This document shows, one piece after another, positions 1 to 62,655 of a DNA stretch of 64,000 nt. The translations under genes and the position numbers were made by a program. The number at the start of each line of letters is the position of its first letter. Within the stretch, counting starts at the first letter, position 1. The stretch covers positions 96,001-160,000 of the IMG/VR virus record IMGVR_UViG_3300028591_000083; one strand, 5' to 3'. The notes under the pieces were generated by a model that did not search any database, was not told the origin of the DNA, and worked only from the letters and a program-made list of their open reading frames with translations. Origin of the DNA: a virus (taxonomy: Duplodnaviria > Caudoviricetes).

Positions 1-406
1 TTGTAATATCCTCACCAATAATACCGTTTCCTCTTGTTTCGGCACAGACAAAGTTACCGTTTTCATCATATGTGAGTTGTACTGTCAGTCCGTCAAGTTT
101 ATGCATATACAATACATCTTTATCACCTTGGAACTTTTGCACTTCCTCAAATGAATGTGCTTTATCCAGTGAAAGCAGTGGCTTAAAATGTGTAACCTCT
201 TTGAAGCCACTGACAACAGAATACCCGACTGTTTGAGTAGGAGAATTACTAAGAACAATACCACTTTCCTTTTCAAGCTGTTCAAGTTTATCAAACAACT
301 CGTCATACTGTTTATCTGTAATAATGGAATTGTTATTATTATAGTATTCATCTCTGCAAACATTCAGGTATTCTACAAGCTCTGTAATTGTTGATGTAGT
401 TGACAT
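1..406 (-). CDS. ligA: NAD-dependent DNA ligase, N-terminal part (runs off window start)
   Basis: Not in ORF track; manual translation from ATG 406 gives ...YYNNNNSIITDKQYDELF...SPTQTVG...PLLSLDK...HKLDGLTV...ETRGNG (KxDG adenylation motif); GGAGG RBS upstream. Confidence 0.93.
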   Translation of the reverse strand, partial: MSTTSTITELVEYLNVCRDEYYNNNNSIITDKQYDELFDKLEQLEKESGIVLSNSPTQTVGYSVVSGFKEVTHFKPLLSLDKAHSFEEVQKFQGDKDVLYMHKLDGLTVQLTYDENGNFVCAETRGNGIIGEDIT

Positions 407-429
407 TTTATTTCCTCCAAAAATAAAAA

Positions 430-687
430 TCAAAGTTCTTTTGTAATGATATCGAACGGCACTCCTGCGAGACTTCTAATGTATTGCATTAAAGCTATCT
501 GTGCATCGTCAGCATCTACTTTTCCACTATCATCTAAATCACAAGCGATATTCTGATCTGCTGTGAATTTAGTTTGGTTGCCTCCAAGAACGCCTAAATA
601 TTCTTTAAGTATCATCTGTGCGTTCTCAGCTCTTAAACTTCCGTCAAAGAATACATCTCCGCCAACTACTTCTACATTATATGCCAT
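430..687 (-). CDS. Stand-alone dockerin-domain protein (Ruminococcus-like)
   Basis: Two repeats GDVFFDGSLRAENAQMILKEY and DLDDSGKVDADDAQIALMQY; the second has an intact Ca-binding loop. Confidence 0.8.
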   Translation of the reverse strand: MAYNVEVVGGDVFFDGSLRAENAQMILKEYLGVLGGNQTKFTADQNIACDLDDSGKVDADDAQIALMQYIRSLAGVPFDIITKEL

Positions 688-42762: not shown

Positions 42763-43027
42763 GCATCTTTCTAAGAGCTACATTTTCTTCAAGCAGTGCA
42801 AAGTTCTTATAAAAAACATCCATTGTTTCTTTTGGAAACTTCCAAAGTCTAGTTGCTGTGATATGAAGATTGTCTTTTATTCCGTTCTTTTCGAGTTCAA
42901 ACTTCAATCCGGAAGTATTCATATTCAGCAATTTACCGGAGAATCCATGTTCTTATAGGTATTTAATTACAAACATATCAAGTTTGCAAAACTCTTTCTT
43001 TCCTTCATACTTTGAAATATCAATCAT
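42746..43027 (-). pseudogene. Hypothetical gene with one in-frame TAA
   Basis: MIDISKY...IKYL*EHGFSGKLL...; stop at 42953-42955, strong RBS only at 43027. Confidence 0.6.
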
Positions 43028-43421
43028 TTTTATTTCCTCCTACAATCAACATATCAAATGGAGCCTCATCCTTCTTATGCGAGGGTAAGAAATTTAAACT
43101 AAATGCGCACACATATTTAACAATTTCTGCATTTGTGTCAATATCACACAAAGGTTCAACGTAGGCTGCCTTATCGAGAATAGTAAGAACTTCACACCAC
43201 GCGCTGTCAAACACGGTACATAATACTGTTTGCTCTGTATCTTTTCCAATATTAAAATCTGAAATATAACCGATTCTACGATTATCAGCATATAAGAACA
43301 CATTTCCTTTATTATATTCGGCAGTCTCAATGAAATTTTCAACCGCTTTTTCAACACCTAAATATTCAGGATAAGTCAATTTCAATCTGAATGTTTGAGT
43401 ATCTTTTTTGTATGTATTCAT
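43020..43421 (-). CDS. Hypothetical protein
   Basis: GGAGG RBS after promoter. Confidence 0.65.
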   Translation of the reverse strand: MNTYKKDTQTFRLKLTYPEYLGVEKAVENFIETAEYNKGNVFLYADNRRIGYISDFNIGKDTEQTVLCTVFDSAWCEVLTILDKAAYVEPLCDIDTNAEIVKYVCAFSLNFLPSHKKDEAPFDMLIVGGNKND

Positions 43422-43460
43422 TTTAATCCTCCAAACATAGAGTATTTACCTTACAAATAT

Positions 43461-43489
43461 AGTATAACACATACTGTGGCGTTTGTCAA
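43461..43489 (-). promoter_or_regulatory. sigmaA-type promoter
   Basis: TTGACA-17-TATACT. Confidence 0.85.
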
Positions 43490-43507
43490 GTGGTTGTGCA
43501 AAATAAA

Positions 43508-43550
43508 AATAACCAAAACTCAGTAAATGATTTGTTTGAGTTTTGGTTAT
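43508..43550 (-). terminator. Terminator of methyltransferase operon
   Basis: aataaccaaaactca...tgagttttggttatt hairpin. Confidence 0.75.
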
Positions 43551-43559
43551 TATGATTTA

Positions 43560-44453
43560 TTAAAATAACTTATTAGCACTTACTGTCTTAGTTTTGCTTT
43601 TCTCTGTCTTATAATTTATAATCAATACTTCATTAGTTTCACAATATCTGTCTTTCAGATTATAACTTGCAGCAGAATAATCAGTGTCGATATTCACAAT
43701 ATTGTATTTTTGCGCCCACCGTATTAGATTGTCATTCTTCATTCCTTTATGCTCTGTTACATTAGATAATGAAAATAGAATTCCTTTATCGTTTAGCGAA
43801 TCAAGCAACTGAAATAAATCAATGTCATCTTTGTCAGACCAACCATTGAATCCGCGCTTTCCGTCATTGTAAGATGCTGTTGATATTGAATATGGCGGAT
43901 CACAATAAACAAAATCTCCGGCAGATAAAATAGAGAAATCGAATGATCTGAAATCAACTGATGAAAACATAAAGTTCTTTGAATGTAAAGCATTGCAGAA
44001 TCGAATCAAGTTACTCTTTATATTCTCATTATATCTGCGCATTCCAAAAGAAGTATTGAACTCATGTTTACTGTTGAACCGTATTTGATGATTATATGAA
44101 AAACAAGTCAGTACAAATAAATCAATATTATTTCTAGTTCTGTTATATTCTTCTCTCAGTCTAAAATAAGAGTCTTTGTTATCGTTCGATAACCTATATT
44201 CAGCAATTCTTTCCTCAATTCGTTTGATCAGTTCATCTGTATCTATGCTTTGAAAATATTTATATAAATCAATTATATAAGAAATCTGATCATTTGCATA
44301 TATTGTATCTGCATTCACGTTGATTCCTACATTCAATCCGCCGCAAAATAGGTCAAAGAATTTTCCAATCTTATTTGGAAATACAGGAATAATTGAATCA
44401 AGTAATTTATATTTACCGCCGATATAATTCAATGGGCTTCTTATATAATTCAA
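43560..44453 (-). CDS. dam: Dam-family (D12, alpha) N6-adenine DNA methyltransferase
   Basis: SPLNYIGGK, DLFCGG (motif I), RFN, YCDPPY (motif IV), LSN, EVLI; ends NKLF. Target specificity not determined. Confidence 0.92.
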   Translation of the reverse strand: MNYIRSPLNYIGGKYKLLDSIIPVFPNKIGKFFDLFCGGLNVGINVNADTIYANDQISYIIDLYKYFQSIDTDELIKRIEERIAEYRLSNDNKDSYFRLREEYNRTRNNIDLFVLTCFSYNHQIRFNSKHEFNTSFGMRRYNENIKSNLIRFCNALHSKNFMFSSVDFRSFDFSILSAGDFVYCDPPYSISTASYNDGKRGFNGWSDKDDIDLFQLLDSLNDKGILFSLSNVTEHKGMKNDNLIRWAQKYNIVNIDTDYSAASYNLKDRYCETNEVLIINYKTEKSKTKTVSANKLF

Positions 44454-44465
44454 AGCATATTCACC

Positions 44466-45506
44466 TCAAAATAGTTTATTTTGTTTATTTGTAGTTTCTT
44501 TTAACTGCGGTTTCTTTAACTTAGATTCAACCAAATGAGCTTTATCTCTCTTAGCAAATTCAATTCTTCTTTCTGCAATATCACAATATTCTTTATTTAA
44601 CTCAATTCCTATAAAGCTGTAATTTGCATCACGATCATTGTTCTCGTAAGCAACAGCTTTTCCTGTGGAACCGCTACCCATAAACGGATCAAGTATTGTT
44701 TCTCCCTTTGGTGTTACAAGTCTTACTAAATATTGCATTAAGGAAGTTGGTTTTACGGTTGGATGAAAATTTTTATGCGGTGCTTTTTCACTTCCAAATT
44801 TCCCAGAGCAACTATTAACATCATCTACATAATCACCAATTCCTCCGCCACCTCCTACAGTTTGCTTTGTAGGTAGATCATCTAATCCCTCATCACGATC
44901 ACGCTTTGATGCCTTTGCACAATAAAAATATCTTGATGCTGACCCTGTGTCATTATAATTTGACGGTGCTTTCGGTTTATCACCATTAAACATTGATGTT
45001 TATTTATTATGATATTCTTTGCCAGAATAACTATACGGATTTCCACAATTTCCACTTCCGCTTATTGGAAATCCACCACAAACTTCATCAAAATCATCTT
45101 CATCGTATGTTAAAATCACATTAGCAGGAAATCTCCCATTATTGTTTATGTTCATTTCACCTTTATCTTTTTTAAGAACATATGAGGATGCATCTGTATC
45201 TGCGCCATGTTCTATCCTATATCCATTTATTTTTCTATAAAGTGGATTAGTTGCCGGATTCTTAGTATCTTCAAATGGTACTCTGCACTCATCTATATTT
45301 ATTCCACCAACTCCATACTTCAATACATTATCAACACAAGAACCATTGAAAGGTTTACGGGCTACTATTATAGGCTCGTAAGCTGGTTTAAGCTGTGTAC
45401 CAATCTGTTGAAGTTCGTTTATACAGTCAGGAATTATAAACTTACCGTCATCATCTTGTATTATTGAAATGATATTACCATTAACATTTACTTGATATTC
45501 TTTCAT
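44466..45506 (-). CDS. C-terminal part of split beta-class N6/N4 DNA methyltransferase, with an in-frame TAA at 45000-45002
   Basis: LKPAYEPI..ARKP, GRFPANV, HPTVKP, LDPFMGSGSTG; the two tracked ORFs are in frame across one stop; ends NKLF. Confidence 0.8.
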
Positions 45507-46068
45507 AATCCTCTAAAACCTTTCGTAATTCATCAACTGTGGCATCTGCTTTAATTCGATTTGCCCTATTGCTAATAATTCTTATATTCCCTTTAACATA
45601 TCCTTTTGTACTATCAATTCTATCAACTGACGGACTATTATCTGTTGGTGCATGAACACCATCGTTTGAAATTATAGGTATTCCTAAAACGGGGCAAATA
45701 TCTGGTATTTGTGGTATATCATCAAGGGTTAAATTAAATTCAATCCCCTTCTGCTTCGCTCGTTTCTTTATAGAACACAGCATCTTATATCTTTTATTAG
45801 ATTTATTATGTAATTCTTCATACTGCCGATTACTCTCGGTTAGACATTTAAGCGAGCAGTAGTGATTGGCACTTCTGTTGTAATGTGTTTTTCCTCCTTT
45901 ATAAACATATGGTTTACCACAATAATCACATAATCTTGTGTGTGATTCTATAAATTGTTGTTTTGCGTATTTATAATAATGGTCTTTGCAGCAAAAATTA
46001 TGTTTCTTAATAATATATTGTTTAATTTCAAACTCCTTATTACAATAAGCACATTTTACTCTTTCCAT
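45481..46068 (-). mobile_element. Free-standing HNH-type homing endonuclease inserted in the methyltransferase gene
   Basis: Two CxxC...(F/Y)C Zn fingers, CPVLG, SVDRIDS.KGY..GNI..IS..AN..K. Confidence 0.85.
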
Positions 46069-46445
46069 TGAATATCTGTAACTCCCTGTTCTCTTAATTG
46101 CTCTTCTATATTTTTTAATACCTTATTGCCTATATTCATAGACTTAGGAAAACCTGAACCAAATAAATACATAATAGTATCTCTTATTTCAAATCCTGCG
46201 TCTTCAATAGCACAAGCAATCCTATGTTGAGTTCTTGGTGCTGCGAAAGATAGAAGATATCCACCCGGTTTTAATACTCGTAAACACTTCTTCCATGTTT
46301 CAACTGAAAAAGCTACTCCACGATTATCCCAATCATTTCCCATAAAATTTATCTCATAAGGAGGATCAGTTACAATACTTCCGATACTGTTTTCTTCTAG
46401 TTTATCTAATTCTTCTAACATATCTCCATTTATCAACTTAATCAT
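46056..46445 (-). CDS. N-terminal part of split beta-class DNA methyltransferase
   Basis: VTDPPY, RVLKPGG, EDAGFEIRD, GSGFPKS; lacks motif I. Confidence 0.85.
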   Translation of the reverse strand: MIKLINGDMLEELDKLEENSIGSIVTDPPYEINFMGNDWDNRGVAFSVETWKKCLRVLKPGGYLLSFAAPRTQHRIACAIEDAGFEIRDTIMYLFGSGFPKSMNIGNKVLKNIEEQLREQGVTDIQWKE

Positions 46446-46454
46446 CTTGTCACC

Positions 46455-47069
46455 TCAAAATAGTTTATTTTGTAATGTATTCTGTAATCTCTCTCTTGCA
46501 AGATTGTAGTATCGCTCGTTGATCTCGAAACCAAGATATTGACATCCAAACAACTTACACGCAACAAGAGATGATCCACTTCCAACATGAGTATCAAGAA
46601 TCTTCATATCTTTTGTTGCGAATGTGTTTAATAAATATGAATATAGCTCTACTGGTTTTTGAGTTGGATGAATTTTCTTTGTAGTTCTATTATCAAATCT
46701 AAATAGTTTAGCCGGTTTGTCATAAGAAGTCCACGCTAATTCTATTTGTGAAAAATTATCCCACGGCTGAACTTTATCCCAACAGACTATACACCTTGTC
46801 GGCGGAAGGTTGAAATAATTTCCGCCCCATATAATTTGATTTTTACTGACTCTAAATAATTCATCAAAATATTCCTGAGTAGGAGCGACATCCCATTCAT
46901 GAATACAGTCTGAATTGATGATTCTATTCTTTAATTTTCCTCTACAATGTGTTGAAGATTTGTCTAATCCATACGGAGGATCAACAATAGCAATATCAAA
47001 ATATTTATCTGGAATTTCTTTTAATGCTTCCATACAGTCTATGTTGTATAAATCATTTAGTTTATACAT
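46455..47069 (-). CDS. Beta-class N6/N4 DNA methyltransferase
   Basis: VDPPY, IWGGNYF, HPTQKP, LDTHVGSGS; ends NKLF. Confidence 0.92.
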   Translation of the reverse strand: MYKLNDLYNIDCMEALKEIPDKYFDIAIVDPPYGLDKSSTHCRGKLKNRIINSDCIHEWDVAPTQEYFDELFRVSKNQIIWGGNYFNLPPTRCIVCWDKVQPWDNFSQIELAWTSYDKPAKLFRFDNRTTKKIHPTQKPVELYSYLLNTFATKDMKILDTHVGSGSSLVACKLFGCQYLGFEINERYYNLARERLQNTLQNKLF

Positions 47070-47078
47070 CTTATCACC

Positions 47079-47984
47079 TCAAAATAATTTATTCTTTTGC
47101 TCAATAATATATTCATTCAACCGATCATTGGATAAGTTGAAGTAATCTTCATCTAACTCAAATCCTATAAATCCTCTTTCATTTCTATATGCTGAAAGCA
47201 TAGTTAAACCAGAGCCGGAAAATGGATCAAGAATTAGATCGCCTTTATTACTGCTTGCAAGTATCAATCTATCAATCAGCTTTTGTGGCTTCTGTGTTGG
47301 ATGATATCTTTTTTCTTCATAGAAATTTATATCTCTCCAAACATCTGTAATTCCTAGCTGTGCGTTATATGTTTGTGATATCTTTTTATACTGCATATTA
47401 AACTGCAAAATCTCCTGTAGCTTGTTCCACAACTCTTCCGTTGGTATCTGTTTGCATACATTATCTCCTGTATAAATGCTCCACATACCGCCGCCATTAG
47501 ATTTTACACCTAATTTTTCGTTAATCTCTTTTGCGCTTAATCCAATCTCTTTTTGACGTTGTTTCAAGAATTCCTTAACAAATTGCTTTGAATCTTTTAT
47601 AAGAAACAATATGCTCTCTGTTACGTTCGGAAACATTTTATAGTTCTTTGTAGCTCTACCTGAAACAGACTTAATTCCTTTATCAATTATAATTTGCTGT
47701 CTTAATTCAAATCCAAATCTCTCCAATATTGGAAGTAGTTTACACAACATTCTAAAATATCCGAATAAATACATCGTTCCGCATTTTCTGAGAACTCTAT
47801 TTACTTCTGAAATCCATTTTTCAGACCATTCTAAATAGTCTAATTCTGTGCGCCAAATATAATCCCATTTCTCATCAATTACCTTAAAATACGGAGGATC
47901 TGAAATTATAAGATCAACAGATTCATTTTCAATATGATTTTTAATTCCTGTAATGCAGTCTTCTTTGAACAATTTTACAGACAT
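47079..47984 (-). CDS. Beta-class N6/N4 DNA methyltransferase with HTH-like insert
   Basis: SDPPY, HPTQKP, LDPFSGSG; ends NKLF. Confidence 0.92.
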   Translation of the reverse strand: MSVKLFKEDCITGIKNHIENESVDLIISDPPYFKVIDEKWDYIWRTELDYLEWSEKWISEVNRVLRKCGTMYLFGYFRMLCKLLPILERFGFELRQQIIIDKGIKSVSGRATKNYKMFPNVTESILFLIKDSKQFVKEFLKQRQKEIGLSAKEINEKLGVKSNGGGMWSIYTGDNVCKQIPTEELWNKLQEILQFNMQYKKISQTYNAQLGITDVWRDINFYEEKRYHPTQKPQKLIDRLILASSNKGDLILDPFSGSGLTMLSAYRNERGFIGFELDEDYFNLSNDRLNEYIIEQKNKLF

Positions 47985-47986
47985 AA

Positions 47987-48913
47987 TTATTTTCCTCTTT
48001 CTTTTGGATATGAATATGTTTTATTCTTTTCTTCAAACTCTTTTCTCAAACGCCTAGTCTCTAACTTCGATGCTCCAAGAACGTACACATATTTATGTTT
48101 TGGCGGGATATTCACTTTCTCTGATTTAGATTGCATCTTCTTAGAATACTCACGCAACTGATTTTCAACATCATCAGGAATATTATTAAATATAACTTTA
48201 TCACCAATAGACCAATTAGACTGCCACTCAATTCCCAAATCCTGCGCGTATCTTTTATAATAACTTCTGCTCCTAAAAGTTCGATCAGATATCAATTTTC
48301 CGCTGTACGGAGATATGTATTTGAATTTAGCGCCGAAACTATTTCCAAGATAATAGAAATTCAATGACTGATAAATTGTTCCTAATTCCTTTGCAGACGG
48401 ATCAGAATAAGCCGAGAACAAACGATATTTAGTATTCTTTACCATCCAACGAATACACCAACTAACAAAAGCGCTTCCTAAACACTTAGGCGACCATGAT
48501 ATACAAGCACCTCTTGAAATAAGTATCTCGATATCTTTTGTATTTTCTCCAAGCATATTTGAATATGCTGTTGGATTTCCCATTGTTACTACTCCGGCTA
48601 GAATATTATTATAATATGCACCGAAATAATGAGTTGTATTTAACGCAATATCTCCTAACCATTCATGTCTTTTTATAAACTGCCTCGCACAAGCCTTATC
48701 AAAATCACTTGTAATCCGCCTAAACTCAAATTCTGATACTTTCAGATCTTCATAATTTATTTCGTCAGGCAACAGCTTCAAATCATCTAATAGATTATTC
48801 AATCTTATATCATATTGCCAGCAGTGCGTCTTGTTATACGATTGCATTCTTTCTTGTTGCATTTTTCTTGAATCTGAATAATCGTCTTGAAAAAGTTTTA
48901 TTCTGTTTGGCAT
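47987..48913 (-). CDS. Mom-like (GNAT-fold) DNA modification enzyme
   Basis: A..FI.RH..LG, G.Y....LAGV.T.G, ISRG, SAYSDP....GTIYQ..NF.YLG. Confidence 0.75.
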   Translation of the reverse strand: MPNRIKLFQDDYSDSRKMQQERMQSYNKTHCWQYDIRLNNLLDDLKLLPDEINYEDLKVSEFEFRRITSDFDKACARQFIKRHEWLGDIALNTTHYFGAYYNNILAGVVTMGNPTAYSNMLGENTKDIEILISRGACISWSPKCLGSAFVSWCIRWMVKNTKYRLFSAYSDPSAKELGTIYQSLNFYYLGNSFGAKFKYISPYSGKLISDRTFRSRSYYKRYAQDLGIEWQSNWSIGDKVIFNNIPDDVENQLREYSKKMQSKSEKVNIPPKHKYVYVLGASKLETRRLRKEFEEKNKTYSYPKERGK

Positions 48914-48920
48914 ATTTACC

Positions 48921-50135
48921 TCAAAATAATTTCTTCTTTCTACTATTTTCTTTTATAGTAGCTTCTACTCTTTGTTTTCCTACTGCGCAATATGGATTTT
49001 CTTCTGAATTGCATAATTCTACATCTATATATCTTAAAGAATATCCACTTTCATAATTTAATTTTTCACAAGCTACAGCATGAGTACAACTTCCGGCTGT
49101 TATATCAATAGTAAGTCCTTCTTTCGGCGTAATTAGTTTAATTAACCAAGAAATTAGATCTATTGGTTTTAGAGTTACATGAGGATTTCTTTTACCGTTT
49201 GGAAGTAGTCTTTCTGACGGACTTACTTTAGGACAGTATTTGAAAACAGGAAATAATCTTGAACCGCCACCTGAATCTCCATATCCGCCAAGAGAATCAT
49301 TCTTATAGTTATCGTTGGTTTCTTGATTGAACGCTCCGTAAATATGTCTTGCACGACATACTGTAGATGCTTTACCAGAACAACCTGTTGATTTTGTAAC
49401 TCCTGTTTGCCTATCAACTTCATCTGTGATATTGTCAGCTAAAACAATATTCGGCGGAAATCTACCGGCTTCATTTGCAGGAACCGCAATGTCTTGAGCA
49501 TAAGCTCCATAAACTTTATCTTCTTTATTTGAATAATTAGTAGTTGGATTCTTAGAAGCCTTTGCATTTAACATATCAATATCTTCTTTTGAAATAGGAA
49601 CTCTACAAGCTCCTATATTCATTCCGCCAACTCCGTACTTTTCAATATTCTCAATATATGTTCCTTCTAATGGTTTTTGAAAGATTGTTATTGTTTCGTG
49701 TGCTGGTTTTAGCCCTGCTGTTTTCCAATCATTCCATTTTTCTGAAAATTCTGAACTGCTGACCCCATTCTTTCGATCATACATTTTTCCGATATCTTGA
49801 TTTGACGGCATACCGCTGCAATAGATCCAATCAACTTCTTCAACAATAGTAAATCCAGAATCTTCAAAAGCAGATTTCATTCTATGATTAGTTTTAGGAC
49901 TTCCAAAGATAGCTGCATATGATCCATGTTTCATAATTCTGATAAGTTCTTTTGCTCGTTCTTCGCACCACCCATAGAAGTTCTTACTGGAATCCCAATT
50001 TTTTCCCATAAAATCAATAGCGTAAGGAAAATCAGATATGCATGAATCAATAGAATTATCTTCTACTGATTTCATCCATTCTATATTATCTGCGTTTATA
50101 ATTTTGCCGGATTTAGATTCATAAATTATTTCCAT
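48921..50135 (-). CDS. Beta-class DNA methyltransferase with atypical motifs (paralogue of split enzyme)
   Basis: SDFPY, FMGKNWD, LKPAHE, GRFPPN, HVTLKP, IDITAGSCT; ends KKLF. Confidence 0.8.
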   Translation of the reverse strand: MEIIYESKSGKIINADNIEWMKSVEDNSIDSCISDFPYAIDFMGKNWDSSKNFYGWCEERAKELIRIMKHGSYAAIFGSPKTNHRMKSAFEDSGFTIVEEVDWIYCSGMPSNQDIGKMYDRKNGVSSSEFSEKWNDWKTAGLKPAHETITIFQKPLEGTYIENIEKYGVGGMNIGACRVPISKEDIDMLNAKASKNPTTNYSNKEDKVYGAYAQDIAVPANEAGRFPPNIVLADNITDEVDRQTGVTKSTGCSGKASTVCRARHIYGAFNQETNDNYKNDSLGGYGDSGGGSRLFPVFKYCPKVSPSERLLPNGKRNPHVTLKPIDLISWLIKLITPKEGLTIDITAGSCTHAVACEKLNYESGYSLRYIDVELCNSEENPYCAVGKQRVEATIKENSRKKKLF

Positions 50136-50176
50136 TATTAACTATTTCCTTTCTACTGAAAGTAATTCTTTATTTT

Positions 50177-50205
50177 ATTATAACACAAACCGCCTGAAAT
50201 GTCAA
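50177..50205 (-). promoter_or_regulatory. sigmaA-type promoter of the modification operon, overlapped by hairpin
   Basis: TTGACA-17-TATAAT; acaaaccgc/gcggtttgt arms. Confidence 0.85.
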
Positions 50206-50222
50206 GCGGTTTGTAGTTATTT

Positions 50223-50684
50223 TTAAGTTACGTTTTTCAGAAGTTCATCAATCTTATCATAGGCTTCGCCGCTGTCAATAATTCCTACTGTTGAAAGATT
50301 ATCTGCTAGCCATGAGAAATAAGCAATGCATAAAGTATCTAGTTCTTCTTTAATAGTCATAATGTCTTTCGTGTTTTTGAAATTCTCTTTTCTGCAAACA
50401 TTTCTAACTGAAATTGTAATCCAGTTATCATCTGTTACTCTATCTTGTCTTTTTCCATATGTTGCATCATAGATGAACTTCTTTTTAGGCAACCTCTTAT
50501 TTCCTTTCTGAATATCAATGTCAGAAAGAAACGATACAATTTCCTGTTTCCAGTGATTTCGAGCCGAATTATTCTTATCCAATACAAGGTAAAGTAAATG
50601 TTCAATTATCTTTACAGTTCTTGCTTTGAGATCACGCTCAATTTCTTTTCTCTGCTCTACGAATTCAAACAATCTGATAACCAT
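50223..50684 (-). CDS. Paralogue family A member 2 (DUF29-like)
   Basis: KIIEHLLYL...HWKQEI..FL; GGAGG RBS before MVIRLFE. Confidence 0.7.
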   Translation of the reverse strand: MVIRLFEFVEQRKEIERDLKARTVKIIEHLLYLVLDKNNSARNHWKQEIVSFLSDIDIQKGNKRLPKKKFIYDATYGKRQDRVTDDNWITISVRNVCRKENFKNTKDIMTIKEELDTLCIAYFSWLADNLSTVGIIDSGEAYDKIDELLKNVT

Positions 50685-50718
50685 AGCACATTCCCTCCAA
50701 TAGATTCTTACTAAATAT

Positions 50719-50747
50719 AGTATAACATACAAATACTAAAATGTCAA
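50719..50747 (-). promoter_or_regulatory. sigmaA-type promoter
   Basis: TTGACA-17-TATACT. Confidence 0.85.
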
Positions 50748-50771
50748 TATCTTTTAAGAAATGAATATGTT

Positions 50772-51218
50772 TTAACTATATCTATTCACAACACATCCAG
50801 TAGGGAATGAAGAATCTTGATATACACAATCATCAGCAATAGTTACAGAAGTTAATCCTGTATCCAAGAAAGATAGATAATCTATATATTTTACTGATGG
50901 TGGTATTGTTACTGATGTTAGATTTGTTAGTCCTCTACAAGCCGCCGGAGTTGTAATGTGATTTGTTATTTGTGAGGAAACAGGACAACCATAATAATTC
51001 TTAACATTTAGAGTTGTCCAAAATTTAATTCCAGAAACATTTAAGCTATCAATAGGAACTAAACCATTAACACATACATATGTTCCACGGAGATTCCAAA
51101 CAAATTTAATTCCGGTAGTATTAATAGTATCTACTATATCTGATGTTAGTTGAGTTGGATATGGAAGTCCTGATAGTATGACATCTACTGATTTCCAATG
51201 TGTTTGTGTCCATGACAT
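50772..51218 (-). CDS. BspA-type leucine-rich-repeat protein
   Basis: LTNLTSVTIPPSVKYI...F..TGLTSVTI. Confidence 0.75.
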   Translation of the reverse strand: MSWTQTHWKSVDVILSGLPYPTQLTSDIVDTINTTGIKFVWNLRGTYVCVNGLVPIDSLNVSGIKFWTTLNVKNYYGCPVSSQITNHITTPAACRGLTNLTSVTIPPSVKYIDYLSFLDTGLTSVTIADDCVYQDSSFPTGCVVNRYS

Positions 51219-58630: not shown

Positions 58631-58916
58631 TAGGTTTATCGAAATATTTATTTGCTTCCTCTACCAACTCTTTGATATCAGAAGCAATTACAGGAAAATC
58701 TACTCCACCTAAAGTTCTGAAACGACCGATATATGTATCATCTGTTAGATCGTGAAAACAGCTTTTCATAATCAGTCTATTATCTAGTGCTGCTTCAATA
58801 GCCGATTTACCAAGAAAGCTAAAATCTACTCGCTCAATATTTTCATCAATCTTTACAAATCTCATAAGAGATTCAGTTGCTTTCTTTACAATGTTTGCGC
58901 TTACCCTGCTTTTCAT
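58617..58916 (-). CDS. Hypothetical protein
   Basis: GGAGG RBS. Confidence 0.6.
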   Translation of the reverse strand: MKSRVSANIVKKATESLMRFVKIDENIERVDFSFLGKSAIEAALDNRLIMKSCFHDLTDDTYIGRFRTLGGVDFPVIASDIKELVEEANKYFDKPIDKE

Positions 58917-61113
58917 GTGTAGCTACCTCCAAATACAATTTATCGTTTTTCAATTTAACATTTATACTACTGTTTTCAAAACATCCAAACTTATCGCTAT
59001 TCAATATCAAATCATCTAAATATGATTCAATATTTCGTTCAATAAATCTTACTCCATTCTTTCTATCAAAGCTATGTTCACACATAAAGTCAATGGCTTT
59101 ATCACTAAATAGAATCTCTGTTCTTAATTTTTCCATATATCTTTGTGATATTTTTGATAGCTTTAGATTGAATATTCTACTAGATAATTCTTTTGTGATT
59201 GGCTTAAACATAATGATTGAATCTAATCTATTCCTGAACTCAGGAGATAGGAAGTTATTTACTGCGTTTGTCACCGCAGATTCTCTGAATTCTGTTTCAG
59301 TAAATCCGATTTGTTTTGTTTCAAGATATTCTTTACATCCTAGATTTGAAGTCATTATAATCAGACAGTTTCTAAAATCAACTGTTTCTCCATTTGCTTC
59401 TGTCAACCTACCGCAATCCATTATTTGAAGAAAAACATTCAATACATCTTTATGTGCTTTTTCAATTTCATCAAGAAGTATTACAGAAAATGGATTATGT
59501 TTAACGTGTTCTGTCAAGGCACCTCCTGCGTGAAATCCGACATAGCCGGGTGGAGAGCCAATAATTTTAGAAACTGAATGTGATTCCATAAACTCAGACA
59601 TATCTAATCGAATAAAACTTTCGTCTGAGAATATGTGTTTTGCAATTAGTTTACTCAATTCTGTTTTTCCTGTTCCTGTAGATCCTACAAAAAGAACAGA
59701 TGCTATTGGCTTTTCAACATTGTTTAGTCCTACAAAATAACGCTTGATGTACCGCATCATAGTATCTACGGCTTCATCCTGTCCAATAATAGATGCTTTT
59801 ATATCTTTGGTTATTTTATCTATGTCTGGTTTCTGTTGATCTTTTGTTTCAATATTTAAGTAACTCATAAGTAAGTTACTTACAAGTTTATTATCCGGAT
59901 CACAACCACTTAGCTTTGCCTGAACACATACTTTATCTAAAATATCTAACGCCTTATCTGGAAAATACCGATTCCGTATATACAAGTCACACATATCAAT
60001 AATACACTGACACACTGAATCTGATACTGTCACACCGTGAAATTTCTCATAAGCACTTTTTGAATTCTTTACGATTTCAAATGCTACTTCTTTCGTTGGT
60101 TCAGCAATATGAATTTTTTGAAATCTTCGTTCAAACGCCCTGTCTGTTTCAATCTTCCGGTACTCTTTTTCTGTCGTGCATCCAATGACAATAGATTCTC
60201 TTGAAAGAAAATTCTTTAATACACTTTCTATTGGAACACTATCACTATCACCTGTACCACTCGTAAACAATGTATGAATCTCATCAATGAACAGTATAAT
60301 ATTCCTATGTGATTCTAATTCTGAGATTAGTTCTTGAAGTCTTTTTTCAAGATCACCTCTATACGTGGTTCCACTTACTAACTTATTAGTGTCGAGTGAA
60401 AAAACACATTTACCTTCTAACTGTTTCGGGCATTTTTCTGATTGAATATAATTACAGATACCATAAACAACAGAGGTTTTACCTACACCTGTATTTCCAA
60501 CCAGAAGAACATTTGATTTTTTCATCTGACAAAGTGTTTTAATACTTTTTTCAATTTCAACTTCTCTTCCGAAACAATCACGATGTTTTATCATCAATGG
60601 ATTTATTAGATATTCACCATAAGCACATAACTTAGATGACATCGGATTTCCTATTTTTCCAACAATAAATGTGAGTACATCTTTACGTGCTTTTTCGGAA
60701 GCATTATTAAATAATGCATTTTCAAAAAATATGTAGCTTTTCAAACTCTTATTTGATAACAGCAGGTATGTAACATACTGAGTAAGAAGTTCTGAATCAA
60801 TCTTCTGCTTGTATGATCTGATAAAGAATAAATAATTATCTAAGAATTCCTCAAACTCATATGATAACTTTATATCCTCATACTCAAAATACTTCTTCTC
60901 TGCTGCACCATCTTGTTTCAACATCGTATTGATTACTTTGTCATAGCTTTCTTTTATATTATCTACTACAATCTTTTTTACAATTCCTTGTTGAACGCAT
61001 AAAGCGGAGAACAATTCTGTATCAATCACTTCATATTTATTTGGAAGCATTCTGAATGTAAGTTGTGCCGTTTTAGGTAGTTTTGTAAAAAAGTCTACAT
61101 ATTTTGATTGCAA
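58873..61113 (-). CDS. ClpA/ClpC-like double AAA+ unfoldase
   Basis: GNTGVGKT, LFIDEIH, ERRF, PDKA.D, GSTGTGKT, RLDMSEF, LLDEIEKAH, IGF loop, PEFRNRLD. Confidence 0.92.
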   Translation of the reverse strand: MQSKYVDFFTKLPKTAQLTFRMLPNKYEVIDTELFSALCVQQGIVKKIVVDNIKESYDKVINTMLKQDGAAEKKYFEYEDIKLSYEFEEFLDNYLFFIRSYKQKIDSELLTQYVTYLLLSNKSLKSYIFFENALFNNASEKARKDVLTFIVGKIGNPMSSKLCAYGEYLINPLMIKHRDCFGREVEIEKSIKTLCQMKKSNVLLVGNTGVGKTSVVYGICNYIQSEKCPKQLEGKCVFSLDTNKLVSGTTYRGDLEKRLQELISELESHRNIILFIDEIHTLFTSGTGDSDSVPIESVLKNFLSRESIVIGCTTEKEYRKIETDRAFERRFQKIHIAEPTKEVAFEIVKNSKSAYEKFHGVTVSDSVCQCIIDMCDLYIRNRYFPDKALDILDKVCVQAKLSGCDPDNKLVSNLLMSYLNIETKDQQKPDIDKITKDIKASIIGQDEAVDTMMRYIKRYFVGLNNVEKPIASVLFVGSTGTGKTELSKLIAKHIFSDESFIRLDMSEFMESHSVSKIIGSPPGYVGFHAGGALTEHVKHNPFSVILLDEIEKAHKDVLNVFLQIMDCGRLTEANGETVDFRNCLIIMTSNLGCKEYLETKQIGFTETEFRESAVTNAVNNFLSPEFRNRLDSIIMFKPITKELSSRIFNLKLSKISQRYMEKLRTEILFSDKAIDFMCEHSFDRKNGVRFIERNIESYLDDLILNSDKFGCFENSSINVKLKNDKLYLEVATHEKQGKRKHCKESN

Positions 61114-62286: not shown

Positions 62287-62655
62287 TTAGAATAATTTTG
62301 GTTTTGATTTAGTGCTAAGATGTGTTAGAACAATATCTTCCTTCTTTTTCTTGATATCTGAGGATTTATGTGAATTATCTGCGCCTGTCACTATTTCAAC
62401 AAACCGAATATCGGAATCTTCATATTTACACCGAACATATTTTATTGACATTGTTTTAGATATAATATAAGCATCAAACTCATACTCATTAGCTGAAGAA
62501 GCTATTTCATCACTATATTTATCTGAATCCACATATGCCAAATAATATATTAAGCTGTCTGTTGCAGAAACGTATTTTAGTTTATTATTTATTAAATATT
62601 TTGAAGATATTGTTCTATTCTTTGGAATCTTTTTAATGTCTGATTGGAAGTCCAT
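62287..62655 (-). CDS. Hypothetical protein ending in KLF
   Basis: ...KSKPKLF*. Confidence 0.6.
   Translation of the reverse strand: MDFQSDIKKIPKNRTISSKYLINNKLKYVSATDSLIYYLAYVDSDKYSDEIASSANEYEFDAYIISKTMSIKYVRCKYEDSDIRFVEIVTGADNSHKSSDIKKKKEDIVLTHLSTKSKPKLF

Follow-up and report, generated by a model that had tools for sequence, protein, structure and literature searches.

Why should DNA methyltransferases (MTases) of two different classes, encoded in one and the same phage gene cluster, all end in the residues Lys-Leu-Phe (KLF)? This question is raised by a tightly packed minus-strand cluster at positions 43560-50135 of a 64,000-nucleotide stretch of viral DNA (the window), which represents positions 96001-160000 of the single 207,349-bp contig IMGVR_UViG_3300028591_000083 (Caudoviricetes). 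The cluster comprises a D12 MTase, a beta-class MTase split over three open reading frames (ORFs), two beta-class MTases of 204 and 301 amino acids (aa), a Mom-family protein and a further beta-class MTase of 404 aa. In a preliminary description of the locus, the common terminus was taken as a tag which the phage adds to its modification enzymes and which docks them on a sliding clamp. As outlined below, docking of the tailed phage enzymes on a sliding clamp is regarded here as probable, if far from certain, and the terminal [basic]-x-Leu-Phe-COOH probably constitutes a short linear docking motif, namely the form that the bacterial beta-clamp-binding motif has taken in this lineage.

The KLF terminus and its enrichment

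All five MTase reading frames in question end in [N/K]KLF, namely in SANKLF (43560), KQNKLF (44466), LQNKLF (46455), QKNKLF (47079) and RKKKLF (48921), and the observation from which the preliminary description started is thereby confirmed at the sequence level. The D12-class (Dam-like, alpha) DNA adenine MTase of 297 aa (43560..44453, minus strand; C-terminus ...KTEKSKTKTVSANKLF) matches Pfam PF02086 with an E value of 6.6e-37 (128 bits, gathering cutoff 22; 1-251 of the 253 profile positions), the domain ending at residue 259. It is the final gene of the cluster, and its TAA stop codon is followed by a terminator-like hairpin. The remaining four ORFs, likewise on the minus strand, belong to the beta class and are recognized by PF01555 (cutoff 26.7 bits). 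These are the C-terminal piece of the split MTase (44466..44993, 175 aa; C-terminal part of the profile, 74.7 bits, domain end 141/175; C-terminus ...KKPQLKETTNKQNKLF), the 204-aa enzyme (46455..47069; E 8.6e-16, 59.0 bits, domain end 192/204; C-terminus ...RERLQNTLQNKLF), the M.MamI-like enzyme of 301 aa (47079..47984; E 1.2e-42, 146.8 bits, domain end 286/301; C-terminus ...NEYIIEQKNKLF) and the 404-aa enzyme (48921..50135; E 1.1e-20, 75.0 bits, domain end 362/404; C-terminus ...ATIKENSRKKKLF). The earlier count of five MTases from the alpha and beta classes holds insofar as Pfam identifies one D12 and four N6_N4 ORFs, but the ORF at 44466 is the last piece of a three-ORF gene.

To what extent this ending stands out was assessed by an ORF census of the whole 207,349-bp genome, using a greedy ORF set with a minimum length of 60 aa (>=60 aa). 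A KLF C-terminus is found in 7/296 ORFs, as compared to ~0.17 expected if KLF were as frequent at C-termini as at internal positions (binomial P ~6e-10), which is an enrichment far above chance. These seven ORFs are the five MTase termini, the NAD-dependent DNA ligase LigA and an ORF designated ORF122, and the probability of finding all five MTase termini among only seven such ORFs is ~1e-9 (hypergeometric). In the preliminary description, no further likely gene with this ending had been noticed apart from ORF122. The tail is indeed rare throughout the genome, but LigA, whose C-terminus lies outside the window, carries it as well. The ligA gene (genome 94346-96433, minus strand, 695 aa) extends into the window with its 5' part only (window 1..433), while its tail is located 1.65 kb ahead of the window start. 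The protein displays the Pfam domain series PF01653, PF03120, PF12826/PF14520 and PF00533 (adenylation, OB, HhH and BRCT, in this order), and the BRCT domain ends at residue 671/695, leaving a 24-residue extension that terminates in KRKLF (C-terminus ...KSVSKPSGKRKLF, i.e. GKRKLF). ORF122 (62287..62655, minus strand; C-terminus ...THLSTKSKPKLF) has no assigned function and, as had been stated before, ends in KPKLF, which follows a K-rich linker. It gave no Pfam or PHROG family match, and the only lead to its function, a weak resemblance to the C-terminal domain of Mu transposase in a language-model comparison, is below the reliable range. Additionally, a 244-aa protein (genome 43841-44575, minus strand), for which no Pfam match above the curated cutoffs was obtained, ends in ...NRMNRKSLFK and thus carries a basic-SLF one residue before its C-terminus.

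Copies of the motif are also found at N-termini. The Mom-family DNA-modification protein of the cluster (47987..48913, minus strand, 308 aa) was assigned to its family by sequence (PF25680, E 1.9e-15; 57.5 bits vs a gathering cutoff of 27.1), in agreement with the earlier proposal of a Mom-like enzyme starting with MPNRIKLF. This start is part of a lineage-specific N-terminal extension (MPNRIKLFQDDYSD) which is missing in more distant homologues; one distant Mom homologue carries QLPLF at its N-terminus. The 301-aa MTase begins with MSVKLF and, hence, displays KLF at both ends.

In the DNA, the codons for K, L and F together with the stop codon read AAG TTA TTT TAA, AAA CTA TTT TGA, AAA TTA TTT TGA or AAA TTA TTC TAA in the MTase genes and AAG TTG TTC TGA in ligA. 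The leucine codon of the 301-aa MTase is TTA, CTG or CTA across this phage and its orthologues on two related phage contigs (L025 and L026, see below). The synonymous variation that had been put forward as a sign of selection on the peptide is therefore real and extends to the orthologues. In four of the five MTase genes and in ligA, TGA is followed by GGT(G/A) at the stop. Such a stop codon within the Shine-Dalgarno-like sequence of the next gene occurs at 24 genes of this genome (e.g. window 44463-44470 and 47076-47083, with TGA-GGTGA or TAA-GGAGA), which suggests widespread translational coupling; at 18/24 of them the C-termini are unrelated to the tail. Since the codons vary synonymously, the stop contexts differ, the D12 gene ends with TAA and a terminator, and those 18 junctions lack a related peptide, selection appears to act on the peptide and not on the RNA.

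With regard to structure, the tail is predicted to be flexible and to lie beyond the folded catalytic domains. The Pfam envelopes stop 12-42 residues short of the C-terminus in the tailed enzymes, and in an AlphaFold model of the D12 MTase the last strand ends at residue 279, coil follows from residue 280, and the predicted local distance difference test (pLDDT) value is <50 for residues 286-297.

Conservation of the tail in related phages

The two related phage contigs L025 and L026 were retrieved via close homologues of the 301-aa MTase, and their 20-kb loci were compared with the cluster. An x[K/R/T]LF C-terminus is present in 5/5 MTases of L025 and in 7/7 full-length MTases of L026 (12/12 in total). 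Apart from these, just one ORF in the two loci ends in LF, the final portion of a split MTase in L026, and none of the non-MTase ORFs there does so. The individual residues drift between orthologues, the tail of the 204-aa MTase being LQKKLF in L025 and that of the 404-aa MTase being RNKKLF in L026, and the stop-codon contexts of the MTase genes in both contigs differ as well.

A much larger sample is provided by LigA. Among its 120 best homologues, many of them encoded on contigs of ~200 kb, 104 carry [KR][KR][K/S/G]LF at the extreme C-terminus. In these tails, Leu-Phe-COOH is invariant (104/104), the mean net charge over positions -8 to -3 is +3, and the linkers ahead of the motif vary freely in both length and sequence. 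A conserved end preceded by a freely varying linker is the typical appearance of a short linear docking motif. Bacterial-type LigA (652-666 aa) ends directly after the BRCT domain and has no tail, nor do more distant phage ligases (42% identity).

Another relative (L063), found via its clamp gene, encodes a 7-deazaguanine DNA-modification cluster (QueC, QueD, QueE, FolE and a DpdA-like protein; L063:508-5983) with PolA on one side and the clamp gene on the other. Here, the DpdA-like transglycosylase (phrog_887, E 1e-47) ends in KTNKLF and a weakly glycosyltransferase-like protein in GKKRLF, while the tail is absent from QueC, QueD, QueE, the GTP cyclohydrolase FolE and a dehydrogenase of the same operon. 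Judged from these annotations, the LF tail is limited to the DNA-acting proteins of this cluster, the small-molecule enzymes being without it. In the phage under study, a Cas4-like exonuclease encoded beside the clamp gene starts with MPKAKSLF, and its relatives start with KKALF or RQSLL. Altogether, the same C-terminal tail is found on five unrelated folds, namely D12 MTase, N6_N4 MTase, LigA BRCT, TGT-like transglycosylase and the weakly glycosyltransferase-like protein.

Canonical clamp-binding motifs in homologous methyltransferases

The published consensus of the bacterial beta-clamp-binding motif is Q-phi-x-[L/M]-[F/L] or Q-phi-x-[L/M]-x-[F/L] (PMC11139829). Canonical C-termini of this type are found in 39/120 best matches of the 301-aa MTase (QLSLF, QMSLL, QLSLPI, QMSLPL and QMTLF) and in 84/120 best matches of the D12 MTase (33 times QMTLML, besides QLTLTL, QMTLPL and QLSLIPE), whereas a control set of 150 clamp homologues contains none (0/150). 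In both of these unrelated MTase families, the canonical motifs occupy the same C-terminal position as the KLF tails of the phage. In IMG/VR phages of ~100 kb, the 301-aa-type MTase ends in QPTLF, QLTLF or QFTLF, and a DnaN-like protein is also encoded.

The tails of the phage itself depart from the consensus in every case, i.e. ANKLF, QNKLF (twice), KNKLF and KKKLF of the MTases as well as KRKLF of LigA. As the sequence rule is followed by the homologues and not by the phage proteins, the phage motif is classified as a variant and not as a member of the canonical clamp motifs. How the two are related was traced in a maximum-likelihood tree of the 301-aa-type catalytic domain, from which the last 18 residues had been removed. 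The basic-LF phage clade (12 rows; Shimodaira-Hasegawa-like approximate likelihood-ratio test (SH-aLRT) support 99) is nested within a clade of MTases with canonical tails or without tail, and at least four changes (>=4) are required for the basic-LF state on well-supported branches. Owing to this nesting and the repeated changes of state, tails seem to have been swapped independently of the enzyme core.

A phage-encoded clamp as candidate receptor

A candidate receptor is encoded by the phage itself. A DnaN-type clamp of 371 aa (genome 180055-181170), which belongs to an 837-member family, was identified by a profile of 104 homologues that matches beta clamps of the PDB over their full length (E 8e-20), and a phage clamp loader is present in the form of DnaX (with a LAGLIDADG intein inside), delta and delta'. 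No close relatives of the clamp were found in IMG/VR. The clamp ends in DDEDE, and a net acidic C-terminus is shared by 58% of the clamp-family members. In E. coli, the pocket of beta that receives the peptide is lined by C-terminal residues of the clamp. By analogy, the acidic C-terminus of the phage clamp could therefore meet the basic residues that precede Leu-Phe in the tails. The acidic runs which end both the clamp and the phage PolA recall the acidic tails of SSB type or T7 type.

Prediction of a complex between the clamp and the C-terminal 46 residues of the MTase piece at 44466, performed with no controls, gave a score of 0.25 (mark 0.32), which counts neither for nor against binding. 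The clamp wedge of E. coli delta is formed by Leu73-Phe74, and RRNLF at residues 72-77 of the phage delta was considered as its counterpart. Only residues 113-326 could be aligned to B. subtilis delta (3zh9), so this is a match in position alone that carries little weight, and the assignment was dropped.

Proposed docking on the clamp and alternative explanations

According to the explanation favored here, the tail would hold the DNA-acting enzymes of this phage on a sliding clamp of the DnaN type, most probably the one that the phage encodes, after the DnaX/delta/delta' loader has placed it on DNA. The clients would comprise the alpha- and beta-class MTases and LigA and, by means of their N-terminal copies of the motif, probably also the Mom-like protein and the Cas4-like exonuclease. 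Clamps remaining on newly made DNA could then act as mobile platforms, with the consequence that nick sealing and methylation would take place soon after synthesis. Modification ahead of host restriction is the benefit that we infer from such an arrangement, and the phage clamp is presumed, in preference to that of the host, to be the receptor. LigA, as a client of known function, supports docking on the clamp, DNA ligase being a known beta-clamp partner.

Several findings, however, weigh against this explanation. PolA (genome 181253-183628), the sole recognisable replicative polymerase of the phage, ends in the acidic DDEDEDDD and is without LF tail; hence, the tail of the other enzymes does not reproduce a clamp peptide of the polymerase. 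ORF122 is tailed without having a known link to DNA. As to the motif, Gln occurs at position 1 in two tails only and position 2 is never aliphatic; canonical motifs owe their affinity to these two residues. In addition, TP[KR]LF is found on cellular MTases of MamI-type restriction-modification systems in Patescibacteria and other phyla, and a bacterial chromosome encodes a homologue with the ending QLSIL next to a controller protein and a restriction endonuclease of MamI type. Because basic-LF tails occur on cellular MTases, too, phage clamp and host clamp are indistinguishable as receptor. Finally, a Firmicute mobile element (L058:6958-9883; 312 collection blocks) carries three stacked MTases beside GmrSD, a Y-family polymerase, a LexA-like protein and a serine recombinase, and only the middle enzyme, a D12 MTase, displays the canonical tail (QMTLML). 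With 1/3 MTases tailed in this stack, the canonical tail is frequent but not universal.

The interpretation of the tail as a clamp-docking tag is thus upheld in part: the tail behaves like a docking motif, canonical motifs occur in homologues, LigA is a plausible client, and the phage encodes both clamp and loader, but the tail-less PolA speaks against it. The idea that the tag was added by the phage is likewise only partly right, in view of the similar tails of cellular MamI-type MTases. The tree indicates that these cellular TP[KR]LF tails arose independently of the phage basic-LF group. The notion of a motif private to the phage clade is weakened by them, though they are of independent origin. 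Likewise, the expectation that non-phage homologues would lack the tail fails for one family, the MamI-type MTases, and holds for bacterial-type LigA. In our view, tails on cellular MTases widen the idea of clamp docking rather than refute it. Some of the cellular enzymes are MTases of ~520 aa ending in TP[KR]LF that are fused to a complete LexA N-terminal module (DNA-binding domain plus S24 peptidase) in Patescibacteria genomes (L109:3326-4888, L116:3311-4873 and L104:1624-3183). These LexA-S24-MTase fusions form convergent pairs with restriction endonucleases of MamI type, and they may represent SOS-linked controllers of restriction-modification.

Among the alternatives to clamp docking, the one that withstands the data best, although it is considered unlikely, holds that the tail docks to another hub (polymerase, helicase, SSB or a phage scaffold) or works as a basic DNA-sliding peptide that speeds up one-dimensional search. 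Short basic peptides such as adenovirus pVIc slide along DNA, and the strongly basic character of the tails, seen in the mean charge of the 104 LigA termini, would suit such a role, as would the restriction of the tail to DNA-acting enzymes and its absence from PolA. Electrostatics alone, however, do not explain a Leu-Phe-COOH that is invariant in all of these LigA tails, and the occurrence of non-basic canonical motifs (EQMTLML, RQLSLF) at the same position in homologues argues against sliding and other hubs alike.

A C-terminal degron or adaptor tag, by which a phage Clp-type AAA+ unfoldase would remove the modification enzymes in a timed manner, appears improbable. A two-ring Clp-type ATPase (AAA, AAA_2 and ClpB_D2-small; window 58873-61113, minus strand) is encoded ~9 kb from the cluster, beside the neighbourhood of ORF122, and in L026, too, the MTase stack has a Clp-like ATPase ~4 kb upstream of it. 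This support consists of synteny alone, whereas a C-terminal degron would account neither for the canonical clamp motifs in homologues nor for the copies of the motif at N-termini. Slightly less probable still is a targeting signal for capsid packaging or import into a compartment, similar to a nuclear localization signal. The K/R-rich GKRKLF and SRKKKLF do resemble signals of this kind, but PolA, DnaB, primase and the clamp would share the destination and yet lack the tail, and similar tails are present on cellular restriction-modification homologues. An equally low probability is assigned to an intramolecular or oligomerisation element that packs on the enzyme's own catalytic domain or against a second subunit, without recruiting anything. 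TP[KR]LF or QLSIL is retained by the MamI-type MTases of cells, and the tail might accordingly be an intrinsic feature of that family; its presence on five unrelated folds, the variable linkers and the unstructured state in the model contradict this. Finally, an origin as nucleotide-level by-product of a stop codon inside the next Shine-Dalgarno sequence (TGA-GGTGA), by chance or by shared descent can practically be dismissed, as the TGA-GGT(G/A) endings of most MTase genes and ligA and the paralogy of the four beta-class MTases are outweighed by the many such junctions with unrelated C-termini, the TAA and terminator of the D12 gene, the differing contexts in L025 and L026, the synonymous codons, the lack of homology of D12, LigA and DpdA to the beta-class MTases, and the small chance probability calculated above.

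Relation to known clamp clients

Known clients of the bacterial beta clamp include Pol II, Pol IV, Pol III alpha, UmuC, MutS/L, Hda and DNA ligase, which use the Dalrymple motif QL[S/D]LF or the hexapeptide QLxLxL (PMC11139829). Like the phage tails, their motifs are short terminal peptides on a flexible linker, anchored by Leu-Phe (or Leu-x-Leu) and with the C-terminus free; moreover, the motif can reside at either end of the protein (N-terminal in Hda), and ligase is a client common to both sets. In contrast, the phage peptides have Lys, Arg or Asn in place of Gln and the aliphatic residue, their carriers are DNA-modifying enzymes, and the candidate receptor is a diverged phage DnaN. DNA-modifying enzymes such as MTases are not among the clients listed in a 2024 review of the beta clamp, in the text of which 'methyl' appears nowhere (PMC11139829). 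In our literature search, with subscription journals outside its reach, no account of clamp-binding motifs on MTases of prokaryotes or phages came to light.

Precedents for individual aspects of the proposal exist in other systems. The eukaryotic MTase DNMT1 is tethered to PCNA by a PCNA-interacting-protein (PIP) box, leading to preferential methylation of new DNA (PMC9690074). An MTase held on a sliding clamp is common to both, as a prediction in the case of the phage, but the eukaryotic pair involves PCNA, a PIP box and a C5 cytosine enzyme and is an analogy without evolutionary link. In phages T4 and RB69, gp43, gp33 and gp55 share C-terminal tails that bind gp45 (PMC9690074). As in the phage studied here, for which docking is a prediction, one terminal peptide is thereby placed on functionally unrelated proteins that dock to the phage's own clamp; the differences are that T4 and RB69 possess a gp45-type clamp instead of a DnaN-type three-domain clamp and that their polymerase shares the tail. 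The tail of the RB69 polymerase contains KKASLF. Phage Mu, in turn, employs the host beta clamp for its late-gene activator MuC, which needs its clamp-binding motif for function (bioRxiv 10.1101/2025.01.04.631326). MuC resembles the tailed proteins in being a non-replication phage protein with a clamp-type motif, but it is a transcription factor with a canonical motif for the host clamp and is not part of a DNA-modification toolkit.

A more far-reaching idea, put forward only tentatively, is that clamp-coupled DNA modification might be an overlooked general principle in prokaryotes, where canonical beta-clamp-binding motifs end many MTases of restriction-modification systems and mobile elements as well as many orphan ones. 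A phage family of ~200 kb would then possess its own basic-x-Leu-Phe code, read by its own diverged, acidic-tailed DnaN, and would use this pair of motif and clamp, tuned to the phage, to recruit alpha- and beta-class MTases, Mom, the DpdA-like transglycosylase, the weakly glycosyltransferase-like protein, LigA and the Cas4-like nuclease to new phage DNA, as a prokaryotic counterpart of DNMT1-PCNA. If docking on the clamp holds true, methylation and other base modifications of phage DNA would be physically coupled to replication, and the canonical motifs on homologues would suggest the same coupling for many MTases of bacterial restriction-modification systems and mobile elements. This could explain how numerous sites are protected in a fast-replicating phage and why cells spare their own DNA from cutting just after its replication. 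The clamp "tool-belt" would gain a new class of clients, and a terminal clamp motif would become a simple sequence rule for predicting modification enzymes that act at the fork. Clamp docking lends itself to a direct test by means of peptides and purified clamps.

The split methyltransferase and the genomic context

The beta-class MTase of the cluster that does not form a single ORF consists of an N-terminal piece of 129 aa with a DPPY motif (46056..46445; N-terminal part of PF01555, 37 bits, and alignment), a middle piece of 168 aa (45000..45506; phrog_3008 DNA methyltransferase, E 1.1e-9) and the tailed C-terminal piece already described (44466..44993), all on the minus strand and collinear with the 404-aa paralogue, to which the middle piece aligns. 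The division into three ORFs results from an HNH/endonuclease VII-type homing endonuclease ORF (45481..46068, minus strand; phrog_3322 endonuclease, E 5.5e-35; phrog_1035 and phrog_3118 HNH), which overlaps both flanking MTase pieces, and from one in-frame TAA (...YHNK* TS MFNGDK...), which separates the middle from the last piece. A group I intron around the HNH ORF was considered and rejected, as no Rfam match was obtained in 43000-51000 at E values up to 0.1. The split MTase may be expressed as subunits, or it may be decaying.

The contig has a G+C content of ~33%, carries nearly all of its genes on the minus strand and encodes a T4-like portal and tail sheath, by which it is identified as a large myovirus. 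A megablast search of the cluster against INPHARED phages returned no match. Three features point to an anaerobic Gram-positive bacterium as the probable host: an endolysin of the GH25/CHAP/PG-binding type, a ribonucleotide reductase of the anaerobic kind (NrdD) and the origin of relatives from Clostridia-rich gut and rumen samples. Selfish inserts are abundant in the genome, with intein or homing-endonuclease domains residing within four genes: DnaX (LAGLIDADG; genome 165415-167655), a UvrD-like helicase (genome 174834-176882), NrdD (genome 74900-78769) and an 815-aa protein (genome 22463-24910).

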